Assembly (NCBI GenBank): GCA_016778305.1
Contig: JADHPT010000009.1
Span: 5,608 to 69,607 of the forward strand
Source: Poseidonia sp.
GTDB lineage: Archaea > Thermoplasmatota > Poseidoniia > Poseidoniales > Poseidoniaceae
Length of the DNA: 64,000 nt
Reading direction: 5' to 3'
Shown here piece by piece: positions 15,942 through 55,927 of this stretch. The number at the start of each line of letters is the position of its first letter. Positions within the stretch are counted from its first letter, which is position 1. A program made the position numbers and the translations under genes. The notes under the pieces are model-generated. The model was not told the origin of the DNA, searched no databases, and saw only the letters and a program-made list of their open reading frames with translations.

Positions 15942-17039
15942 TCATTCAATGGCTGGTTGGGGTGTGGTAAAATCTTCTATCAGTGCAGCATTCTCTGGGT
16001 TTGAAGCGTCAATTTCAATGGATGGGGTCTTCCATGCCGTATGAAGGGCCACCGTTGAAAGTATGAGGGCTCGGAAAAATCCTACTTCTTCATATTCCCA
16101 TCCTCGCTCCTCGGCGTATTCTTTGACGATAGGTGCAGCCTTTGGTAGATTAAAGTGAGAAAGGGCCGGAAGTAAGTGGTGCTCGATTTGATAGTCAAGT
16201 CCAACAAAGAAAAAGGAGCCAAATTTGCCGAGTTTGATGCGGCGGCCCGTTTCAATCTGCAACCGCCAGTTTTCGTCGTACTTCGTTACAATAGGGCGTC
16301 CTGCGTGACCCACGATGAAAATGGCTGTAAGGTACGTGCCCACGAGACTCCAGAGGAGGATATAGAATCCGAAGGTAACCTGCCAGCTTACACCGAGCAT
16401 GATCGGGAGGGCGAGCCACAGGAAGAAGTGAACGAGAATGAGGGATGAGTCGAGCATCCATATCTTTGAAAATCGGTTTCGCTTCTTTTTGAACGGGTGC
16501 AAAATGGTGTACTTGATGCCGTCCCAACGCATCAAATGACCCACGAGGAGGGAAATTGGCCAGAAGAAGTATGCCTGAATGTTTCGCTGGAACCACTGTC
16601 GCAATTTACCGCTGCTCTCATATTCCTCTTGGGAAAAGGTGAGAGGCCATGAGTGAATGTCCGGATCTTTTTCGACAACATTGGGATGTGCATGGTGCTT
16701 CACATTGTGTTTTTCACGCCAGTATTCCATTGAGAGGCCTGAAAAGAGAGGGAATGCAACGGCTGCGAGTGATACGTTTCCTAATTTTGATCTGCACGCT
16801 GAAAGGTGAACTCCTTCATGCCCGATCATAGCCACGGTGGTCGTCAGGAGAGCTGTAATGGGGAACAAAACGAGCCCCCATTTGATGGGGAGAAGAATAT
16901 GGGCGGTGTAGAGGCCACCGAGAACGGCCAACAGAACGATGATTTTCGTCCAAGATTTACCCGTTGGTTTGTCCAATAGACCATGTTCTTGAAGTTTTTT
17001 GCGGAGTTCAGCCATAGGATGCGCAGCCATTATTGTCAC
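15942..17039 (-). CDS. membrane fatty acid desaturase family protein (front-end type, no cytochrome b5 domain)
   Basis: His boxes HEGVH, HNVKHH and QIEHHL; PNVVEKDPDI; several TM helices. Confidence 0.88.
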   Translation of the reverse strand: MTIMAAHPMAELRKKLQEHGLLDKPTGKSWTKIIVLLAVLGGLYTAHILLPIKWGLVLFPITALLTTTVAMIGHEGVHLSACRSKLGNVSLAAVAFPLFSGLSMEYWREKHNVKHHAHPNVVEKDPDIHSWPLTFSQEEYESSGKLRQWFQRNIQAYFFWPISLLVGHLMRWDGIKYTILHPFKKKRNRFSKIWMLDSSLILVHFFLWLALPIMLGVSWQVTFGFYILLWSLVGTYLTAIFIVGHAGRPIVTKYDENWRLQIETGRRIKLGKFGSFFFVGLDYQIEHHLLPALSHFNLPKAAPIVKEYAEERGWEYEEVGFFRALILSTVALHTAWKTPSIEIDASNPENAALIEDFTTPQPAIE

Positions 17040-17119
17040 CTGAACAGGGTGTGTTCATTGACCAACCGCGCGCCCCTCCCCTATGAAACTGGTGTTTTTA
17101 CCAACACCGTTTTGGCCAG

Positions 17120-17839
17120 TCATTCAAGGGAATGAATGAAATCGTCTACGCGCTGTGCAATGGCATCAAATGAAAGGTCATCGACGATGGAAGGAAGGAA
17201 ACCTGAACAGGTCTCAAGATATCCCGTAGGTGGATTCCAGGGGCATTTGCCTTTCCACCACACCTCTGTTTGTCCGTCACTTCGTGATAGTGTTAACGCT
17301 GGTGTAGGCATGGATGGGTGGGGGTGATGAAGGGTTAAGAGGGTGCCACCAAACCATTGAACGTACTCTTGATTTGTAAATGAAATCACCAATGATTCAT
17401 CCACGACATGCTGCAGACGCCCTGGTTTTCCTAAGGTCTCACGGGTTGAAATAATGAGATCTGCATCAAACTCAGTAGGTTGGTGGCGTTCATTCTTTGT
17501 CGTTGATACTCGAATCGTCTCACCTTGTTGCACCATACCCAATACTCGCGTCCTCGGGTAGATGTTGACGCCTTTTGAAGCTGCAACAGAGGTCATGTGC
17601 TTCATGACCCATTCCCAACGGCAACCCCAGCCGTCTGGGTTTGAAGAAAGTTTGAGAAATTCTATCTGGTGTGTTGAAAAATACTGATTGAAAACGGATG
17701 GATTGAGAACTCTCCCGGGATGTGAAATAGGTAACCCTAACTCAGCATCGATTTCAAAAATTGAAACCGTCCCTTTTTCTTGATAATGCAGTGCGAGAAG
17801 CAATGCTTCAAGGCTACCTCCAATAATACATACGTCCAT
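17120..17839 (-). CDS. degenerate FAD/NAD-binding protein resembling the geranylgeranyl reductase N-terminal domain
   Basis: DVCIIGGSLEALLLA...FEIDAELGLP...AASKGV..DADLIIS. Altered GxGxxG motif; only about 239 aa. Confidence 0.55.
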   Translation of the reverse strand: MDVCIIGGSLEALLLALHYQEKGTVSIFEIDAELGLPISHPGRVLNPSVFNQYFSTHQIEFLKLSSNPDGWGCRWEWVMKHMTSVAASKGVNIYPRTRVLGMVQQGETIRVSTTKNERHQPTEFDADLIISTRETLGKPGRLQHVVDESLVISFTNQEYVQWFGGTLLTLHHPHPSMPTPALTLSRSDGQTEVWWKGKCPWNPPTGYLETCSGFLPSIVDDLSFDAIAQRVDDFIHSLE

Positions 17840-17840
17840 G

Positions 17841-18041
17841 TCAATCACTCGGAATGATATCAAGAGCAAAGACTGGACAGGATGGAATGCAAAGACGACA
17901 ATGGGTGCAATTTTTTTCATCAACATATATCATACGATCTTCAAGAGTTAGTACGTGCACTGGACATAATGCGATACATGCTCCACATCCAAAACACCGA
18001 TCTTCACGGACAATGAATTCGTGGTGTTTCACTCTGCCCAT
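17841..18041 (-). CDS. 2x[4Fe-4S] ferredoxin
   Basis: CFGCGACIALCP and CTHCRLCIPSCP. Confidence 0.93.
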   Translation of the reverse strand: MGRVKHHEFIVREDRCFGCGACIALCPVHVLTLEDRMIYVDEKNCTHCRLCIPSCPVFALDIIPSD

Positions 18042-18081
18042 GACAACTGCAAAATACGATGATAAAAGACTCCTTCTCTCC

Positions 18082-18319
18082 TGAGTGGAAAGAAAAACCC
18101 AGATTCACCGCCGAAAACATGAGAGCGTGCACATACCCCTTTCTTTCCACTGGAAAGAAATCTTTGGATCTCAACTGATGAAGGAAAAAGGGGAGAGAGA
18201 TCAGTGAAGGAAAAAACCCGTCTGATATGGTCGCGAGAGGTTAATCAACATAATGGTAAAAAAAGAAGAGAATTTATTCTTCCCCGAACAAGAATCTACT
18301 CCAATGGAAATGAGGGGGT
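18082..18319. other. putative archaeal replication origin (ORB cluster with AT-rich spacer)
   Basis: TTCCAGTGGAAAGAAAGGGG on minus (18136-18155); TCCAATGGAAATGAGGGGGT on plus (18300-18319); degenerate copies at 18082-18100, 18176-18193 and 18201-18219; AT-rich tract 18241-18281. This is the largest intergenic gap in the window. Confidence 0.72.
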
Positions 18320-18361
18320 CTCTACCCACATCTTCATGTGTCACTTAGGTGTGGTGTTGCC

Positions 18362-19675
18362 ATGGTCTTGTATTCTGCTGGTCGGACCAGCACCTATCCT
18401 GATGAGGCACCAAGAAAAGGACTCCAATACCACTACCTTGGTGGTGGAGATGAAGTCGGTAATGTAGGTCTTGTTCTTGAGGATCACGAGGGAGTTCGTT
18501 TGCTTCTCGATTACGGATTAGCCCCAACATCTCCGCCAAGGTATCCCTCTGAAGCCCCCTTAGTACACGATGCTGTCATTACCCATTCCCACGTTGATCA
18601 CCTCGGCATGGTACCGTGGCTGTGTGCACATCATCGAACTCGTCTTCACGGAACAAAAGTAACAGCCGATCTGTCAGATATGATGTGGCGAGATTGCTAC
18701 AAGGTCAGTTCCATTGAGCGATATCCACTTGCTTGGGACAAACGAGATATCGATACTGCATTGGATTCTTGGCATATTCATGAGTTTGGTCAGCCTTGGA
18801 AACATCATTCTTGGACGCTTACCCTCCATTCAGCAGGTCATATTCCAGGAGCTGCGATGCTGCACATTCAAACACCCACCCACACCGTATTGCTCACCGG
18901 CGACTTTGATACACGAGATTCACCGCTTGTCGCAGGAGCTCAACCTGTCAAAACAGATATTCTCTTTGTTGAAGGCACCTACGGGGGACGTGACCATCCT
19001 CCAAAGCAAGAGGAGATTCAACGATTCATCGATGCAGTTGACCGCGTGGTACGCCAGGGAGGCACCGTCCTCATACCCGCCTTTGCCAACGGCCGTACGC
19101 AGGACGTAGTCATGCTCCTGCACCGTCATCTGCCACATTTGGATGTTCATGTCGATGGAATGGGCAAGCGAGTTGCTAGAATTCACATGGACCACCCAGA
19201 CATGCTTCGTGATAGCGAGGAGTTTGAACGGGCTTGGCGGTGGTCAAAGCGGGTTTCAAGTAAATCAGACAAGAAAAAAGCCCTGGAGGCAGACGTCATT
19301 GTCACCACGTCAGGGATGCTCAATGGAGGTCCAGCCCACTGGTACCTCAACCGCTTGCGCCATGACGGTCGGAATGCCGTATTTTTTACAGGATACCAAG
19401 CCAAAGATACAGGGGGTAGAAGTCTTCTAGAAACAGGGCGTGTTGAAATCTACGGAAATTCAACAGAGATAGAATTGCCCACAGAACAATTTTCTTTCTC
19501 GACTCACGCTGGTCACCAGGAAATACTTGACTTCGCTAAAGCCTGTGAGGCCAAACACGTGATCGTTTACCACACGGACCCGAATCACGCCCGCCCCCCA
19601 CTTGTTGAAGCCCTTGAGCTACAAGGCCATATCGTTCACCAGCCAAAGAATGGGGAATCGCACATACTGGAATGA
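18362..19675 (+). CDS. beta-CASP metallo-beta-lactamase ribonuclease (aCPSF2-like)
   Basis: LGGGDEVG, THSHVDHLG, AGHIPG, TGDF, EGTYG, PAFANGRTQ, GYQA and FSTHAG motifs; no N-terminal KH domains. Confidence 0.9.
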   Translation: MVLYSAGRTSTYPDEAPRKGLQYHYLGGGDEVGNVGLVLEDHEGVRLLLDYGLAPTSPPRYPSEAPLVHDAVITHSHVDHLGMVPWLCAHHRTRLHGTKVTADLSDMMWRDCYKVSSIERYPLAWDKRDIDTALDSWHIHEFGQPWKHHSWTLTLHSAGHIPGAAMLHIQTPTHTVLLTGDFDTRDSPLVAGAQPVKTDILFVEGTYGGRDHPPKQEEIQRFIDAVDRVVRQGGTVLIPAFANGRTQDVVMLLHRHLPHLDVHVDGMGKRVARIHMDHPDMLRDSEEFERAWRWSKRVSSKSDKKKALEADVIVTTSGMLNGGPAHWYLNRLRHDGRNAVFFTGYQAKDTGGRSLLETGRVEIYGNSTEIELPTEQFSFSTHAGHQEILDFAKACEAKHVIVYHTDPNHARPPLVEALELQGHIVHQPKNGESHILE

Positions 19676-23185: not shown

Positions 23186-24400
23186 ATGGAGGGCGTACCG
23201 TACTTTATTCCCGTAGAGGAAGCTCAATCCATCGCATTCAAAACACCTCCACTCACTGCAGATGAGGAATGTGATTTGGATCGTGCCCACGGGCGTATAT
23301 TATCTCAGGATTTGGTGAGCAAGGTCAACGATCCGCCCTTTGACAATTCATCCATGGACGGATTCGCGTGCCGTCTTAATCCAGGTGCAATCTATCCCCT
23401 AACGTTGAAAATTTCTGGTGTCGTAGCGGCATCGGGGCAGGAAGGTACGAATGTCCTCGGCGAGGGGGAAGCCTTCCGAATCATGACGGGAGCGCCGATG
23501 CCAGAAGGTGCTGATTCAATTTTGCAAATCGAGCGATGCGAGGTTACTGCAGACGAAAGCACCGTTACACTCCTTGAAGCACCAAAGCCACACTTTGTAC
23601 GGAAGATGAGTGAAAATCTCACCGAAGGCGAGGTGACGCTCAAACAAGGAACACTCCTCACTCCTTCGCGAGTGGGCCTGTGTGCAACGATGGGTTACGC
23701 TACAGTGCCCGTGTACAAGCCTCTTGTCGTAGGTATATTGTCAACAGGAGACGAACTCAAAGCACCGGGGTCAGAACTCAAGCGCGGGGAAATTTACGAA
23801 TCAAACTCCTATGGTCTCGCTGGACTCGTTCAATGGATGGGCCATAAAGCCAAACGCTATTCTTCTGTTAACGACTCAATGGATGCGTTACGAACCAGCC
23901 TTGATGCCGCAAGCGATGAATGCGATGTTATTCTCACGTCTGGGGGCGTTTCCATGGGCGAATTCGATTATGTTCGCCGAATCATGGAGGAGGAAGGAGA
24001 CATACATTTCTGGCGCATGAAAATTCGCCCAGGCTCACCACCGCTCTTTGGCACGTGGAAGAGCACGCCCCTTTTCGGACTCCCCGGCAATCCCGTCTCC
24101 AGTCACGTTGTATTCCGGATGCTCGTAGCACCTTACCTTCGCCGAGCACTCAATACCGAGGGTCCTGTAGAGTGGAAGGTTCGAGCAAAATTATGTGATA
24201 AAATCAAGTCTACAAAGGACTGCTTGACCCTGCGCAGAGTCACACTTACTTCCACGGAAGAAGGTATGATGGCTCACCAGCCACGCCACCAAGGCTCGGG
24301 TAATTTGGAAAGCCTTGCAAGCGCAGACGCCCTTACACTCCTACAGCCCGGTCAATCTGGCGATGTTGGCGAATGGATCGATGTTCTGGTGATAGAATGA
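23186..24400 (+). CDS. moeA: molybdopterin molybdotransferase
   Basis: PPFDNSSMDGFA, IMTGAPMP, STGDEL, TSGGVSMG and GLPGNPVS motifs. Confidence 0.95.
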   Translation: MEGVPYFIPVEEAQSIAFKTPPLTADEECDLDRAHGRILSQDLVSKVNDPPFDNSSMDGFACRLNPGAIYPLTLKISGVVAASGQEGTNVLGEGEAFRIMTGAPMPEGADSILQIERCEVTADESTVTLLEAPKPHFVRKMSENLTEGEVTLKQGTLLTPSRVGLCATMGYATVPVYKPLVVGILSTGDELKAPGSELKRGEIYESNSYGLAGLVQWMGHKAKRYSSVNDSMDALRTSLDAASDECDVILTSGGVSMGEFDYVRRIMEEEGDIHFWRMKIRPGSPPLFGTWKSTPLFGLPGNPVSSHVVFRMLVAPYLRRALNTEGPVEWKVRAKLCDKIKSTKDCLTLRRVTLTSTEEGMMAHQPRHQGSGNLESLASADALTLLQPGQSGDVGEWIDVLVIE

Positions 24401-52263: not shown

Positions 52264-53643
52264 TCAGAACATCAAGGTCTTGAACATGAACCATGGTGAA
52301 TGCAGATTTTCCTGCGCCTCTTTGCTTGCAATCATTTCAGTCATCATTTCTTGAATAGCAGGCTTTTTCGAGGCTTTTCCAACAAACCAGTTCAACAACC
52401 AGGCACGCCGACTCATTTTCTGCATTCGGAACGAATTGGTCAACTCGGGGCCGAGTGCAGCCCAAAGAGCATCTTGATACGCCTCTGGTGTTTTCTCGTT
52501 GAGAATATGATCTGCGGCCATTTCGCCACTTACGAGAGCATTACCAACACCTTCCCCACTGAAGGGGTCGACCAATGATGCGGCGTCGCCAACGAGGAAA
52601 ACGCCGTTTGCAGATGAGCGGCGCGGTTGGTTACTCGCCTTTTTGCGAGGTGAGCCGAACGGGAGCTGCCACCCCTTACCGGTTCCTGGAATCATACTGG
52701 CTTCGGCAAACCTGTCCTTGAACAGTGGATGTTCGTGAATCACTTCATGTTGAAGCAACTTGAGTTTCTTCTTCTGCTTGTCAAGTAAGGACATCACCAT
52801 GCCTATGCCGACGTTGACCACGCCTTCGGAAACGGGGAAGAGCCAGAAATAACCTGGGATCACAGTATCAACGAAGTGAATTTCAATGTCTCCGACATTT
52901 GCCTCACATCCTTTGACGCCTCGCCAATATTCGCGGTATCCTGCGCAATAGTGGTCCCGGTCCACCATTTCTTCTCCATAAGTCTCCTCAACCATCGATT
53001 TAGCGACAGGGCATCGATAGCCAGCAGCTCCGATGATGTTGGTAGCATAATAGGTACGCTCCTCGCCCTTTCGCCCACCGATGCGAACAACGATTCCTTT
53101 GGCATGGCGCTTTGATTGAGAACCTTCACCGGGGTCTTCCCCGCCTGCCCCATCATCGTAGAGAACATCACGAACATCTCCACCCTGGATGATTGCACCA
53201 CCAGCATCTCTTACGAGGGTTTGAACTTGGTTGAAGAGGATGTGGTCAAATTGTTGGCGAGGCAGAGAATAGCCAGCCTCCAGACGAGCAACGTCTTCTT
53301 CTGGTAGTGCGACCCGAACAGTATGCCCTTTGGGCGAGGAAAACAGAATCCCAGTAACACGGAAGTGAGGCGTAGATTCGAGATGTTCTTTCACTCCAAG
53401 TCGTTTAACATGACTTAGTGATTTACCGCCCACTGCATCACCACAGATTTTGTCACGGGGCCACGTTTCTTTCTCAATCAGCAACACCCGCTTGCCTTCC
53501 ATGGCAAGGTAGCCAGCAGCAGAAGACCCGCCGGGCCCGCCGCCAACGACAATGGCATCGTAGGTACCTTCTGCGTCAGGGGTTTCTCCAGAGTCAATGG
53601 GTTGTTTCCAAGAAACATCGTCTCCCGTCCTCGGTGCGCCCAT
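52264..53643 (-). CDS. geranylgeranyl reductase family FAD-dependent oxidoreductase
   Basis: VVGGGPGGS, PRDKICGD, GYFWLFP and VGDAASLVDPFSGEG motifs. Confidence 0.9.
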   Translation of the reverse strand: MGAPRTGDDVSWKQPIDSGETPDAEGTYDAIVVGGGPGGSSAAGYLAMEGKRVLLIEKETWPRDKICGDAVGGKSLSHVKRLGVKEHLESTPHFRVTGILFSSPKGHTVRVALPEEDVARLEAGYSLPRQQFDHILFNQVQTLVRDAGGAIIQGGDVRDVLYDDGAGGEDPGEGSQSKRHAKGIVVRIGGRKGEERTYYATNIIGAAGYRCPVAKSMVEETYGEEMVDRDHYCAGYREYWRGVKGCEANVGDIEIHFVDTVIPGYFWLFPVSEGVVNVGIGMVMSLLDKQKKKLKLLQHEVIHEHPLFKDRFAEASMIPGTGKGWQLPFGSPRKKASNQPRRSSANGVFLVGDAASLVDPFSGEGVGNALVSGEMAADHILNEKTPEAYQDALWAALGPELTNSFRMQKMSRRAWLLNWFVGKASKKPAIQEMMTEMIASKEAQENLHSPWFMFKTLMF

Positions 53644-53690
53644 GACAGGAATGGAGAGGGGGCGCCCTTTGAGGATATGCTTTCAAGACG

Positions 53691-54719
53691 ATGATGTACC
53701 GCCACACTCATGACCTCTCGGCCATTGGTCGTACCATGGATGAAGTCGCCCGAGAAGCCGGTGTTGACTACCATCCGCAACGGCGTAAAGCCGCTCTCGT
53801 TTTATTGAGCGTCACCTTGATCTGGGGTGCGACCTTCATCTGGATGAAACAAGCACTCAATGCCCTTCAGCCAGAAATAGCTGATTACGGGACCTTTCCG
53901 GTAGTCGCTTTTCTTGTTGCTGGGCGTTTCTTCATCGCAATGGTATTGGTTCTGCTGTTCTTCTCAAAAGCGAGAGAAGGCCTGCAAGCCCGAGCCATGT
54001 GGAAGGGTGGGAGTGTACTTGGCGGCGTTATGCTGATCGGTTTCGTCACACAAATGGTTGCATTGGACGACATCAACCCCTCAACATCAGCCTTTCTCAC
54101 ATCACTCTATGTCGTGATGACGGCCTTGTTGACGGTTCGAATGGCTGAACATCCTCCCCGCAGAGCGCTGTACTGGGGCGTCTTCATGGCAACCTTTGGG
54201 GCGGGCTTCATCGAAGGGCCGCCTCATCTATCGTGGGGGTGGGGTGAACTCGCCACGGTATGTTCAGCATTCTTCTTCGCCCTTCATATCGTATTCACTC
54301 AACATTTCACCCAGCGTTTTGATCCGATTGGATTGACAGCTACGTCCTTCGTATTCATTACGGCAGGTTGTCTTTTTCTGGCCCTTTTATCCACGCCATC
54401 ACTCCCTGCCATGGCCAGCGACATCCTTTCTCGCGAAGGTGTTTTGTTGCCCCTATTCTTGCTGGGACTTGGAGGCTCGTTCTTTTGCCTCCTCGCCCTC
54501 AATCTTTTCCAGCGATACATGCACCCCGTTCAAGCGGCCATTATCTATGCATTTGAACCGGTTTGGGCTACGATCTTTGGTCTCGGTTTGGATCTCGTCA
54601 CCTGGACGCTCTGGATACCCCTTGGCGGCGGTATTCTTCTTGCCGGCAATATCATGGTTGAATTGACCACGCCGCATGAATCGTTCAAAACCGAGCAAGA
54701 AAATGAGCAGAACTCTTGA
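53691..54719 (+). CDS. DMT/EamA family transporter
   Basis: IWGATF, SAFLTSLYVV and AAIIYAFEPVWA motifs; about 10 TM helices. True start may be slightly downstream. Confidence 0.9.
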   Translation: MMYRHTHDLSAIGRTMDEVAREAGVDYHPQRRKAALVLLSVTLIWGATFIWMKQALNALQPEIADYGTFPVVAFLVAGRFFIAMVLVLLFFSKAREGLQARAMWKGGSVLGGVMLIGFVTQMVALDDINPSTSAFLTSLYVVMTALLTVRMAEHPPRRALYWGVFMATFGAGFIEGPPHLSWGWGELATVCSAFFFALHIVFTQHFTQRFDPIGLTATSFVFITAGCLFLALLSTPSLPAMASDILSREGVLLPLFLLGLGGSFFCLLALNLFQRYMHPVQAAIIYAFEPVWATIFGLGLDLVTWTLWIPLGGGILLAGNIMVELTTPHESFKTEQENEQNS

Positions 54720-54754
54720 AAGAGCGACAGGAATTGGTCTGCTTGTTGGCCTAC

Positions 54755-55927
54755 ATGTCAGATGACGACGAAAACCACCGTTTTGCCACGCACACCGTTC
54801 ACAGTGGAACGCAGCACATCGGCGACGCCGTCAACACACCTATCTTCCAATCATCAACGTACAAATTGACCGATGAACGATATGCTGGCTGGGCTGCAGG
54901 CGCACAGCATACACTTCTCTACGCTCGCCTTTCTTCAGTCAACTCCGATGCCGTCGCTCAAAAACTGATAGCGCTTGAGCATGGCGAGGATGCCGAAGTA
55001 TTCGCATCAGGCATGGCGGCAATCTCCACTACACTGCTGGCTCTGCTCAATCAAGGCGACCACATGGTCGCCAGCCCAGATGTCTACGGCGGCACCTACG
55101 GGCTTCTGACTGAGGAATTACCGCGCTTTGGAATCTCAACGACCATGGCTGACATGCGAGACCCAGCCTCTTACGAGGCAGCCATTCAACCCAATACGAA
55201 ATTGCTGTACATCGAGACCTTGACCAACCCCGTGCTCAAGGTGTGCGATATTTCCGCCATGGCCGAAGTGGCGAAACGTCACAATCTCCTGCTTCTGATC
55301 GACAATACCTTCGCATCCCCGTGGGGATGTCAACCCTTAGTCCTCGGTGCAGATTTAGTCATACATTCTACCACCAAATACCTCGGAGGTCACTCAGACA
55401 TTATCGGCGGAGCCGTTGTTGGCCCGAAGGACCTCATCGCTCAGATTTTCATGCGAAAGGTCCACTTTGGAGGCAGCCCCGACCCTCATGCCTGCTACCT
55501 TCTCGAACGAGGTATGCGTACACTTGATGTTCGTATGCCCCGTATTTGTGAAAATGCAGCAACGGTTGCAGAGCGCTTGGAACAACATGACGCCATCGAG
55601 ACCGTCTATCACACCAGCCTCGAGAGTCACCCTGATTTCGAAGTCGCTCAACGAACCATGCCAAAAGGCTCAGGCATGGTAGCCTTCGTCGTCAAGGGCG
55701 GTGACGAAGCGGCCTTGAACTTCATGCGCAGCCTCAACATTATCTACGAAGCAACCAGCCTGGGTGGCGTTGAATCATTGATTGAATGCCCGTTTAATTC
55801 CAGCCACATGTTCGTACCTGAGGACGTTCGTGTAGCTGCAGGCGTCGTGCCAGGCTTTGTTCGACTGAGCATTGGCATTGAGGACGTTGAAGATTTGTGG
55901 CAGGATATTGACCAAGCCTTGGCTTGA
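54755..55927 (+). CDS. PLP-dependent trans-sulfuration enzyme (cystathionine gamma-lyase/synthase or methionine gamma-lyase family)
   Basis: TPIFQSST, FASGMAAI, YGGT, DNTFA, HSTTKYLGGHSD, SLGGVESL and RLSIGIED motifs. Confidence 0.92.
   Translation: MSDDDENHRFATHTVHSGTQHIGDAVNTPIFQSSTYKLTDERYAGWAAGAQHTLLYARLSSVNSDAVAQKLIALEHGEDAEVFASGMAAISTTLLALLNQGDHMVASPDVYGGTYGLLTEELPRFGISTTMADMRDPASYEAAIQPNTKLLYIETLTNPVLKVCDISAMAEVAKRHNLLLLIDNTFASPWGCQPLVLGADLVIHSTTKYLGGHSDIIGGAVVGPKDLIAQIFMRKVHFGGSPDPHACYLLERGMRTLDVRMPRICENAATVAERLEQHDAIETVYHTSLESHPDFEVAQRTMPKGSGMVAFVVKGGDEAALNFMRSLNIIYEATSLGGVESLIECPFNSSHMFVPEDVRVAAGVVPGFVRLSIGIEDVEDLWQDIDQALA

Follow-up and report, generated by a model that had tools for sequence, protein, structure and literature searches.

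The window analyzed here is a stretch of 64,000 nucleotides (contig C13, positions 5608–69607) of a 1.9-Mb assembly, G000, which holds 1,901,525 bases in 33 contigs, and the relatives with which it was compared are public MAGs labelled Poseidonia, Poseidoniaceae or Poseidoniales. At positions 18042–18361 of the window lies a 320-bp intergenic gap whose two flanking genes diverge (Table 1). A preliminary description of this DNA had placed the gap between a ferredoxin and a beta-CASP nuclease, and both assignments are borne out by the open reading frames and their Pfam matches. The ferredoxin is also found as a neighbor in the sister family f2. The start codon of the nuclease, an ATG at 18362, is conserved in relatives, and the beta-CASP ortholog adjoins the pair of boxes described below in families f1 and f2. 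An Rfam scan of 17000–19500 returned one sub-threshold match only (E = 0.83), which falls within the beta-CASP coding region, and we therefore take 18042–18361 to contain no known RNA.

Table 1. Features in and around the gap (window coordinates) and the dif-like site (contig and scaffold coordinates).
Feature	Position	Strand	Remarks
Ferredoxin, 2x[4Fe-4S], 66 aa	17841–18041	-	ORF; Pfam Fer4_21 1.2e-13, Fer4 1.8e-13; reads away from the element
Degenerate mini-ORB CTGAGTGGAAA	18082–18092	+	3 mismatches to TCCANTGGAAA, no G-string; ~55 nt left of the left ORB
Left ORB TTCCAGTGGAAAGAAAGGGG	18136–18155	-	Weight-matrix score 36.5 bits, best in the genome; dyad towards centre, G-string outward
Palindrome TTTCTTTCCA-C-TGGAAAGAAA	18140–18160		21 bp; overlaps the left ORB
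Direct repeat, copy 1 TGAAGGAAAAA	18179–18189	+	Iteron-like, exact 11-nt repeat
Direct repeat, copy 2 TGAAGGAAAAA	18205–18215	+	Copies 26 nt apart
Central block (…CCCGTnnnATATGGTCGCGAG…)	18216–18245		TCGC/G columns invariant or nearly so; about midway between the ORBs
AT-rich tract, candidate duplex-unwinding element	18241–18281		80% A+T; next to the right ORB
Right ORB TCCAATGGAAATGAGGGGGT	18300–18319	+	Weight-matrix score 35.1 bits; dyad towards centre, G-string outward
Conserved word ACCCACATCTTCAT	18324–18337	+	14-mer, conserved columns; between the right ORB and the beta-CASP start
Beta-CASP / metallo-beta-lactamase nuclease	18362–19675	+	Pfam Beta-Casp 8e-16, Lactamase_B_6, RMMBL; reads away from the element
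Dif-like site	G000:C22:179,964–179,987; G012:1,269,044–1,269,067		Palindrome from a de novo search

The gap contains two ORBs, one on each strand, which have the letters and the positions claimed for them in the preliminary description, and which match the archaeal ORB consensus as quoted in PMC4153887. Together they form a 20-nt inverted repeat with arms 80% complementary and 145 nt between them. The full pattern TCCANTGGAAAN(3-6)GGGG has two matches in the 1,901,525 bases of G000, searched on both strands, and both are at this gap. The genome-wide scan that had been proposed as a check was run with a weight matrix derived from 40 ORBs found in relatives, to which G000 contributed none; the two boxes rank top, the next-best site reaches 19.8 bits, and there are 10 matches of at least 12 bits in total, with no ORB cluster elsewhere in G000. 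Since both full-pattern matches and both high matrix scores fall in one gap, the match is far beyond chance.

The left ORB is overlapped by a 21-bp palindrome, which is present as first reported; however, only its dyad core is conserved, and the extension to 21 bp is peculiar to G000. The G-strings of the two boxes had been seen to point outward, and this orientation holds, but it is the canonical arrangement and no anomaly, so that the earlier reading has to be corrected. In work of Gaudier and colleagues from 2007, the winged helix of the initiator reportedly binds the dyad and its AAA+ domain the G-rich end. ORBs that flank a DUE are usually opposite in polarity, with the winged-helix domains facing each other across the DUE (PMC6742236). 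By this polarity rule and these domain contacts, outward G-strings with inward dyads are what a canonical origin would have, and the same conclusion follows from the recurrence of the minus-then-plus order in relatives whose ORBs flank cdc6-1. Opposite-polarity ORBs around an AT-rich tract, with their dyads inward, are thus found here as in origins of the oriC1 type.

Loss of the motifs in relatives had been named beforehand as an outcome that would speak against an origin, and the motifs turn out to be conserved in both families of the order. A search for the beta-CASP ortholog placed it in 60 genomes of the family to which G000 belongs, and 30 of the loci were compared. Both ORB arms are exact in 16 of these 30 loci, and under a looser pattern both arms are present in all 30, with 126–156 nt between them. 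In the alignment of the 30 loci the ORB columns, including those of the left ORB, are near-invariant, whereas the 4 nt that precede GGGG are free to vary. A second, independent collection comprised 31 named Poseidonia loci. Of these, 5 were dropped, 3 because their upstream flank was incomplete and 2 because they fell short of 2,500 nt; among the other 26, both arms were exact in 16, one arm in 9 and none in 1, at a spacing of 163–166. In the sister family, G065, G074 and G106 have a minus-then-plus pair, 145–165 bp apart, between beta-CASP and ferredoxin, and G130 has one exact box in the same place among the matches listed. Since the pair is present in both families, the arrangement predates the split of the two families of Poseidoniales.

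The boxes are accompanied by further elements. The AT-rich tract is as first described, with an A+T content of 80% compared with 48.5% for the window. The least stable 30-mer of 17900–18500 starts at 18250 (dG −31.0 vs a window mean of −41.6, sd 2.9), equally unstable 30-mers make up only 0.02% of those in the window, and the inter-ORB segment is 52–75% A+T among the 30 loci. Three degenerate ORB copies had also been proposed. One of them, at about 18082–18092, occupies the place of a mini-ORB in relatives. There, 21 of 30 loci have at most 2 mismatches, mostly at a constant 55–56 nt from the left ORB, compared with 10 of 30 on the opposite strand, and the alignment shows an aligned block of columns. 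The other two, however, are the copies of a separate family of direct repeats. Across loci these repeats are 9–13 nt long and about 26–33 nt apart, and their position is conserved while the words differ by genus; a repeat of other sequence is present at this place in 23 of 30 loci (score at least 9), and in 3 of 4 loci of family f2. In a shuffle test, no more than 2 of 200 shuffles reached the observed score in 19 of 30 loci, a count to be read in the light of the related genomes not being independent, though the repeat words differ between genera.

Between the repeats and the AT-rich tract, 24 of the 30 loci keep the TCGC core of the central block at a distance of 74–77 nt from the left ORB, and a GG(A/T)CGCG word is at the corresponding place in 2 of 4 f2 loci. 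The 16-mer at 18225–18240 has no second match in G000 with up to 2 mismatches, and its 3-mismatch matches there equal those of the reversed control. Accessory factors probably bind at the central block and at the direct repeats, whose words are genus-specific. The conserved word ACCCACATCTTCAT, to the right of the pair, raises the question of whether it has a promoter or leader role.

The preliminary description had further noted that no cdc6 gene occurs in the window, and a TIGR02928 search found no Orc1/Cdc6 gene on the entire 70-kb contig. Two such genes are present in G000, at C28:58079–59173 (423 bits) and C26:106950–108044 (225 bits). The product of the former, orc1-1, matches over its full length the proteins of ORB-bound crystal structures (2v1u_A, 5.9e-94; 2qby_A, 1.1e-93), and judged by this similarity the Orc1-1 of G000 should bind ORBs in the canonical way. 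In none of the five genomes checked (G000, G012, G021, G023 and G053) are the initiator genes linked to the ORB pair. In G012, a single scaffold with many N gaps, so that long-range distances depend on the scaffolding, the two orc1/cdc6 genes are 437 and 497 kb from the pair. A better ORB cluster beside cdc6 had been put forward as the finding that would overturn the proposal; it was looked for, and the matrix scan shows no ORB cluster at either orc1/cdc6 gene. Repeats within 1.5 kb of both genes are short two-copy families only, and there is no skew switch at either gene. Judging from the genomes compared, the unlinked arrangement is ancestral to the order Poseidoniales, with both its families. 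A segment of about 38 kb around the pair is inverted in G021 relative to G012 and G000.

ORBs in the Poseidoniales lineage are not confined to origins, since conserved single ORBs also stand some 75 bp in front of mcm and within an ORF in the neighborhood of orc1-1. Such Orc1 sites outside origins lend some weight to the view that the boxes are an Orc1 operator for the divergent ferredoxin and beta-CASP genes and not a replication start, the true origin being elsewhere or not based on ORBs, and the right ORB indeed ends only 42 nt before the start codon of beta-CASP. We consider this very unlikely. An operator of the known class would be a single ORB near a promoter, with no paired box or unwinding element, a description that fits the single sites upstream of mcm better than the present gap. 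It would also leave unexplained why two inverted boxes are kept at a fixed distance around an AT-rich core, together with the central block and the iteron-like repeats, and why there is no other ORB cluster in the genome.

Comparison with known origins points in the same direction. In the origin oriC1 of Sulfolobus, inverted ORBs lie around an AT-rich segment (PMC6742236, PMC12141716). The oriC1 of Sulfolobus/Saccharolobus has two inverted Orc1-1 boxes around an AT-rich segment of about 130 bp (ORB2-DUE-ORB3), compared with 145 bp here, and a conserved motif about midway, ucm, which is bound by UBP (PMC12141716). The central block GGTCGCGAG can be likened to ucm by its place. The cognate initiator in both systems is an Orc1-1 ortholog. 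However, Sulfolobus oriC1 is directly upstream of orc1-1, whereas in Poseidoniales the closest orc1/cdc6 gene is 437 kb from the pair on the G012 scaffold and on other contigs elsewhere. The gap thus has the sequence-level features of the oriC1 class and lacks the adjacent initiator gene. For the genus-specific direct repeats, we know of no described counterpart at other origins.

The predicted origins of Methanomassiliicoccales share the same ORB consensus, including the 4-nt spacer before GGGG, and the minus-then-plus order (PMC4153887, Table 2). Their ORBs, however, flank orc1/cdc6.1 and are 1.5–1.9 kb apart (G110, G151 and G093), whereas the boxes of the Poseidoniales pair are separated by 164 bp without an intervening gene, the initiator gene being elsewhere. 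In relatives of family f5, minus-then-plus boxes flank cdc6-1; in family f4 of the phylum, two boxes are 4.4 kb apart and are unlinked from cdc6, as in Poseidoniales. The oriC of Pyrococcus abyssi resembles the present locus in its ORB and mini-ORB repeats around an AT-rich region (PMC1904270) and in its sharp skew feature (PMC2958812). According to two reviews, archaeal origins adjoin an initiator gene (PMC4010727, PMC2643942), a "replicator-initiator" rule from which the present locus departs, as neither orc1/cdc6 nor whiP, the usual neighbors of an origin, lies beside the ORB pair. Sulfolobus oriC3 is also an origin without an adjacent orc1/cdc6 gene (PMC4010727), but oriC3 adjoins its own initiator gene, whiP, whereas here the neighbors are the ferredoxin and the beta-CASP nuclease, neither of which is a known initiator.

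Strand composition also changes at the gap. Within the window, the raw cumulative GC skew has its maximum at 16–20 kb, and in two-kb bins the skew is positive in 9 of 9 before 18 kb and negative in 8 of 8 after. Because raw skew cannot be separated from the effect of gene orientation and gives a weak signal across the genome, A-T and G-C skew were instead taken at 4-fold degenerate sites, with long ORFs as gene proxies and the coding-strand term regressed out. The best change point then falls at 23,508 on contig C13 of G000 (ORB pair at 23,830; t = 8.4), at 203,332 in the 109–329 kb segment of G012 (pair at 203,830; t = 6.6) and at 130,168 on G031:C18 (pair at 130,642; t = 16.1). In G026 it is 4.5 kb from the pair, with a weak step of the same sign (t = 2.4), and G021 has no step (t = −1.6). 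Three of the five family genomes thus have a coding-independent step no more than about 0.5 kb from the pair, and in these the composition switch, to which the earlier remarks on skew had drawn attention, coincides with the boxes. On the contig of G000, A-T skew at 4-fold sites is negative in 18 of 21 genes to the left of the pair and positive in 26 of 35 to the right, in both gene orientations; in G012 the cumulative A-T minimum is at the gene adjoining the pair; and in G031 the step is about ±0.2, flat over ±40 kb, with G-C stepping too (t = −7.2). A composition step that holds in both gene orientations and extends over tens of kb is a further observation that an operator would leave unexplained.

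Taken together, we consider it likely that the gap is an Orc1-dependent oriC unlinked from its initiator gene, as the preliminary description had proposed, and this reading now has the support of the conservation of the boxes, of cdc6 genes without an ORB cluster and, with the reservation on its polarity given below, of the composition switch at the site in 3 of 5 genomes. That Orc1 binds here, that MCM is loaded and that the origin fires, as well as what the accessory elements do, we infer along the following lines. The locus would be a chromosomal origin of the oriC1 type, in which each of the oppositely oriented ORBs binds one Orc1-1 monomer, so that the winged-helix ends of the two monomers would face each other across the 145-bp segment with its AT-rich unwinding element. 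MCM would be loaded between the ORBs, and replication would proceed both ways, co-directionally with the diverging flanking genes. The accessory sites, by analogy, could be bound by a factor like ucm/UBP and by the fast-evolving Orc1-2.

A de novo search for 11-6-11 palindromes common to G000 and G012 yielded one dif-like site (Table 1), so called because it resembles the core of bacterial dif. Of the 41 genomes of the family, 29 have exactly one match to its pattern, and G011, which has a weaker second match as well, brings the genomes with a match to 30; the reversed control has zero matches in the 41. The site is between convergent genes in G000, and each genome encodes one tyrosine recombinase, away from the site. 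On the G012 scaffold, 185.8 degrees separate it from the ORB pair, and a gradual global skew switch (1.227–1.24 Mb) is 30–40 kb away from it. This switch extends over about 60–100 kb in both G012 and G000. Skew is described as sharp at oriC and broad at the terminus (PMC2958812). Around this second switch (G012 1.205–1.26 Mb; G000:C22 180–225 kb) we found neither an ORB nor an AT-rich repeat cluster, and the conserved words between genes came to no more than four 11-mers, attributable to chance. An antipodal dif-like site, too, would be left unexplained by an operator. The region in G000 includes a 157-bp AT-rich divergent gap (C22:212023–212179).

When gene orientation is cumulated along G012, the minimum falls at about 220 kb, and with a single origin at the pair 55.6% of coding length is co-directional compared with 44.1% with the origin at the opposite pole. 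The bias is modest, the best single-origin position by this measure being 140 kb, at 57%. As the axis that joins the ORB pair and the dif-like site is a line of mirror symmetry for the composition pattern, the pair should be one pole of the replication axis, and gene orientation, motif identity and the sharpness of the step together point to it as the origin pole.

The polarity of the step complicates this account. At the pair, the strand running away has A>T and C>G, which is the polarity of the switch on the terminus side, so that both are a V in cumulative A-T skew, although the composition step and the divergence of gene orientation are both at the pair and the dif-like site is diametrically placed. 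The simple single-origin picture does not predict the same polarity at both switches. Two diffuse switches of the opposite type are found in G012 about 95 and 125 kb on either side of the pair (~109 and 329 kb), and G000 composition projected on the G012 order gives the same large-scale pattern with shorter arms. When two switches are fitted to G012, the "upper" one is placed at 60–100 kb and not at the pair, owing to the local inverted domain; as a locator, this fit counts against the simple model. Inversions were considered as a cause of the paradox and rejected by reasoning, since an inversion that contains the origin keeps the type of the switch and cannot create it. In G151, whose ORBs flank cdc6-1 and which was taken for calibration of the polarity, there is no skew step (t = −0.4).

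Equal polarity at both switches is what might be expected if the pair were a real Orc1-dependent origin but not the sole or main one, with a second, ORB-less origin near the other switch (G012 ~1.23 Mb; G000:C22 ~190–215 kb) and the ORB origin firing late or rarely, so that it replicates only about 50–125 kb per side. The opposite switches at about 109 and 329 kb in G012 would then fit one delay, with fork travel of about 780–850 kb on both sides; the step amplitudes are similar at both G012 switches; and the large-scale pattern is shared by G000 on the G012 order. However, the 1.2-Mb switch has the gradual shape described for termini (PMC2958812), the unique dif-like site is located there, and no ORB, AT-rich repeat cluster or conserved intergenic element was found in the regions searched around it. 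Moreover, only 48.4% of genes would be co-directional. We therefore regard this version as unlikely.

The leading strand is T- and G-rich in most bacteria. If the same were true here, as it appears to be at the dif-side switch, the polarity of the pair would be that of a terminus, and the pair might then be a fixed point of fork convergence, the flanking 50–125 kb being copied towards it, either from diffuse initiation zones or by helicases that are loaded at the pair and fire at a distance, with the Orc1-bound boxes as a barrier. Such a model would account for a sharp step flanked by opposite switches that are diffuse and differently placed in G012 and G000, and the midpoint of the 109-kb and 329-kb switches (219 kb; antipode 1,251 kb) is near both observed switches. 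However, the region of 200–330 kb in G012 is strongly plus-strand biased, so that its genes would be head-on to the forks, co-directional genes would amount to 51.6% compared with 55.6% for a single origin, no ORB-type origins are found at the flanking switches, and we know of no precedent for Orc1 as a terminator. We consider convergence at the pair highly improbable.

The inverted polarity might also be reconciled with an origin at the pair if the pair were the centre of a mirror-symmetric origin-proximal domain, about 50–125 kb per side, in which replication strand asymmetry has the opposite sign to that elsewhere on the chromosome. This could arise if DNA near the origin were usually copied towards the pair, initiation occurring away from the loading site with the Orc1-bound boxes as a barrier, or if, in these archaea, the strands of early- and late-replicating DNA mutated in opposite senses. 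We hold this to be rather doubtful.

Poseidoniales (Marine Group II) rank with the most abundant archaea of the plankton; to our knowledge none is in culture. In the literature, we found no published location of their replication origin. An Orc1-dependent oriC between the ferredoxin and beta-CASP genes, together with a dif-like marker of the terminus, would allow growth rates to be estimated from metagenomes by coverage (peak-to-trough ratio), and would provide anchors for ordering the contigs of MAGs. Two new leads, both open to testing, are the iteron-like repeats that change with the genus and the paradox in skew polarity. The order would further offer a natural case of a canonical Orc1-1 origin without linkage to its initiator, next to a sister lineage that keeps the gene between the boxes, and the lost linkage bears on the question of why replicator and initiator are otherwise so constantly paired.

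Besides the ORB pair, which lies in an intergenic region between ferredoxin and beta-CASP genes and probably marks oriC, a single canonical or near-canonical ORB was found directly upstream of the mcm helicase gene, in a divergent gap, in the genome containing the window (G000), in its single-scaffold, N-gapped relative G012, and at four further loci in relatives (L159, L162, L163, and L170). In G012 it is situated ~75 bp from the mcm start, and it is kept across both Poseidoniales families. This site could serve as an Orc1 operator on mcm, or could be a second, minor Orc1 site.

An ORB-like 19-mer is also present ~5 kb from orc1-1, inside an ORF that encodes a protein of 835 aa whose N-terminus is winged-helix-like. 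The DNA word is retained in both families, while the encoded protein is only 21–25% identical and the flanking nucleotides differ. For intragenic ORBs, the Thermococcales DP1 gene provides a precedent (PMC2643942). In f4, another family of the same phylum, two ORBs are spaced 4.4–4.6 kb apart and unlinked from cdc6 (L207/L211, L205/L209, L206/L210, and L208/L212). In the one pair that was read, in genome G103, the ORBs make up the inner portions of a longer inverted repeat (~48 nt or more) that brackets several genes, and this arrangement may represent an invertible or duplicated origin half.

Features in and outside the window (C, contig; L, locus in a relative; G021, family genome)
Feature	Location	Strand	Remarks
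Single ORB before mcm	G000:C1:79031-79060	-	outside window; canonical or near-canonical match
Single ORB before mcm	G012:C1:305934-305952	+	outside window; canonical or near-canonical match
ORB-like 19-mer	G000:C28:52716-52734	+	outside window; within ORF 52323-54830
ORB-like 19-mer near orc1-1	G012:C1:1824165-1824183		G012 copy
ORB-like 19-mer near orc1-1	L165 and L166, around 1501	-	copies
f4 ORB pair L207/L211	G103:C1:41523 and 45961		
268-aa ORF	window 17120-17926	-	two genes left of ORB pair
Inversion breakpoint	G012:C1 ~1,175,400-1,231,800 vs G000:C22 ~216,700		at terminus-side skew switch
Inverted block, ~38 kb	G021:C4 148-186 kb vs G012 178-215 kb		contains ORB pair in G021
Dif-like palindrome	G000:C22:179964-179987		outside window; 9-nt arms, 6-nt spacer
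Dif-like palindrome	G012:C1:1269044-1269067		outside window; 9-nt arms, 6-nt spacer

The 268-aa ORF to the left of the ORB pair matched no Pfam family at E ≤ 0.001.

Replication-type skew at 4-fold degenerate sites is almost absent from some long G000 contigs (C20, 132,890 bp, and C1) and amounts to ±0.05–0.1 on others. Arranged along G012, the stretches with near-zero skew lie between zones of opposite polarity. Two inversion breakpoints were identified between genera, one between G012 and G000 and the other between G021 and G012. The genome lacking a skew step at the ORB pair is G021, the same one whose inverted block holds this pair.

A unique dif-like palindrome, located between convergent genes, is present in 30 of the 41 family genomes: 29 carry it once, and G011 has a second match as well, a weaker one. 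The only tyrosine-recombinase gene (G000:C25:12639-13148) does not adjoin it. The palindrome may be a XerA site and may mark the terminus.
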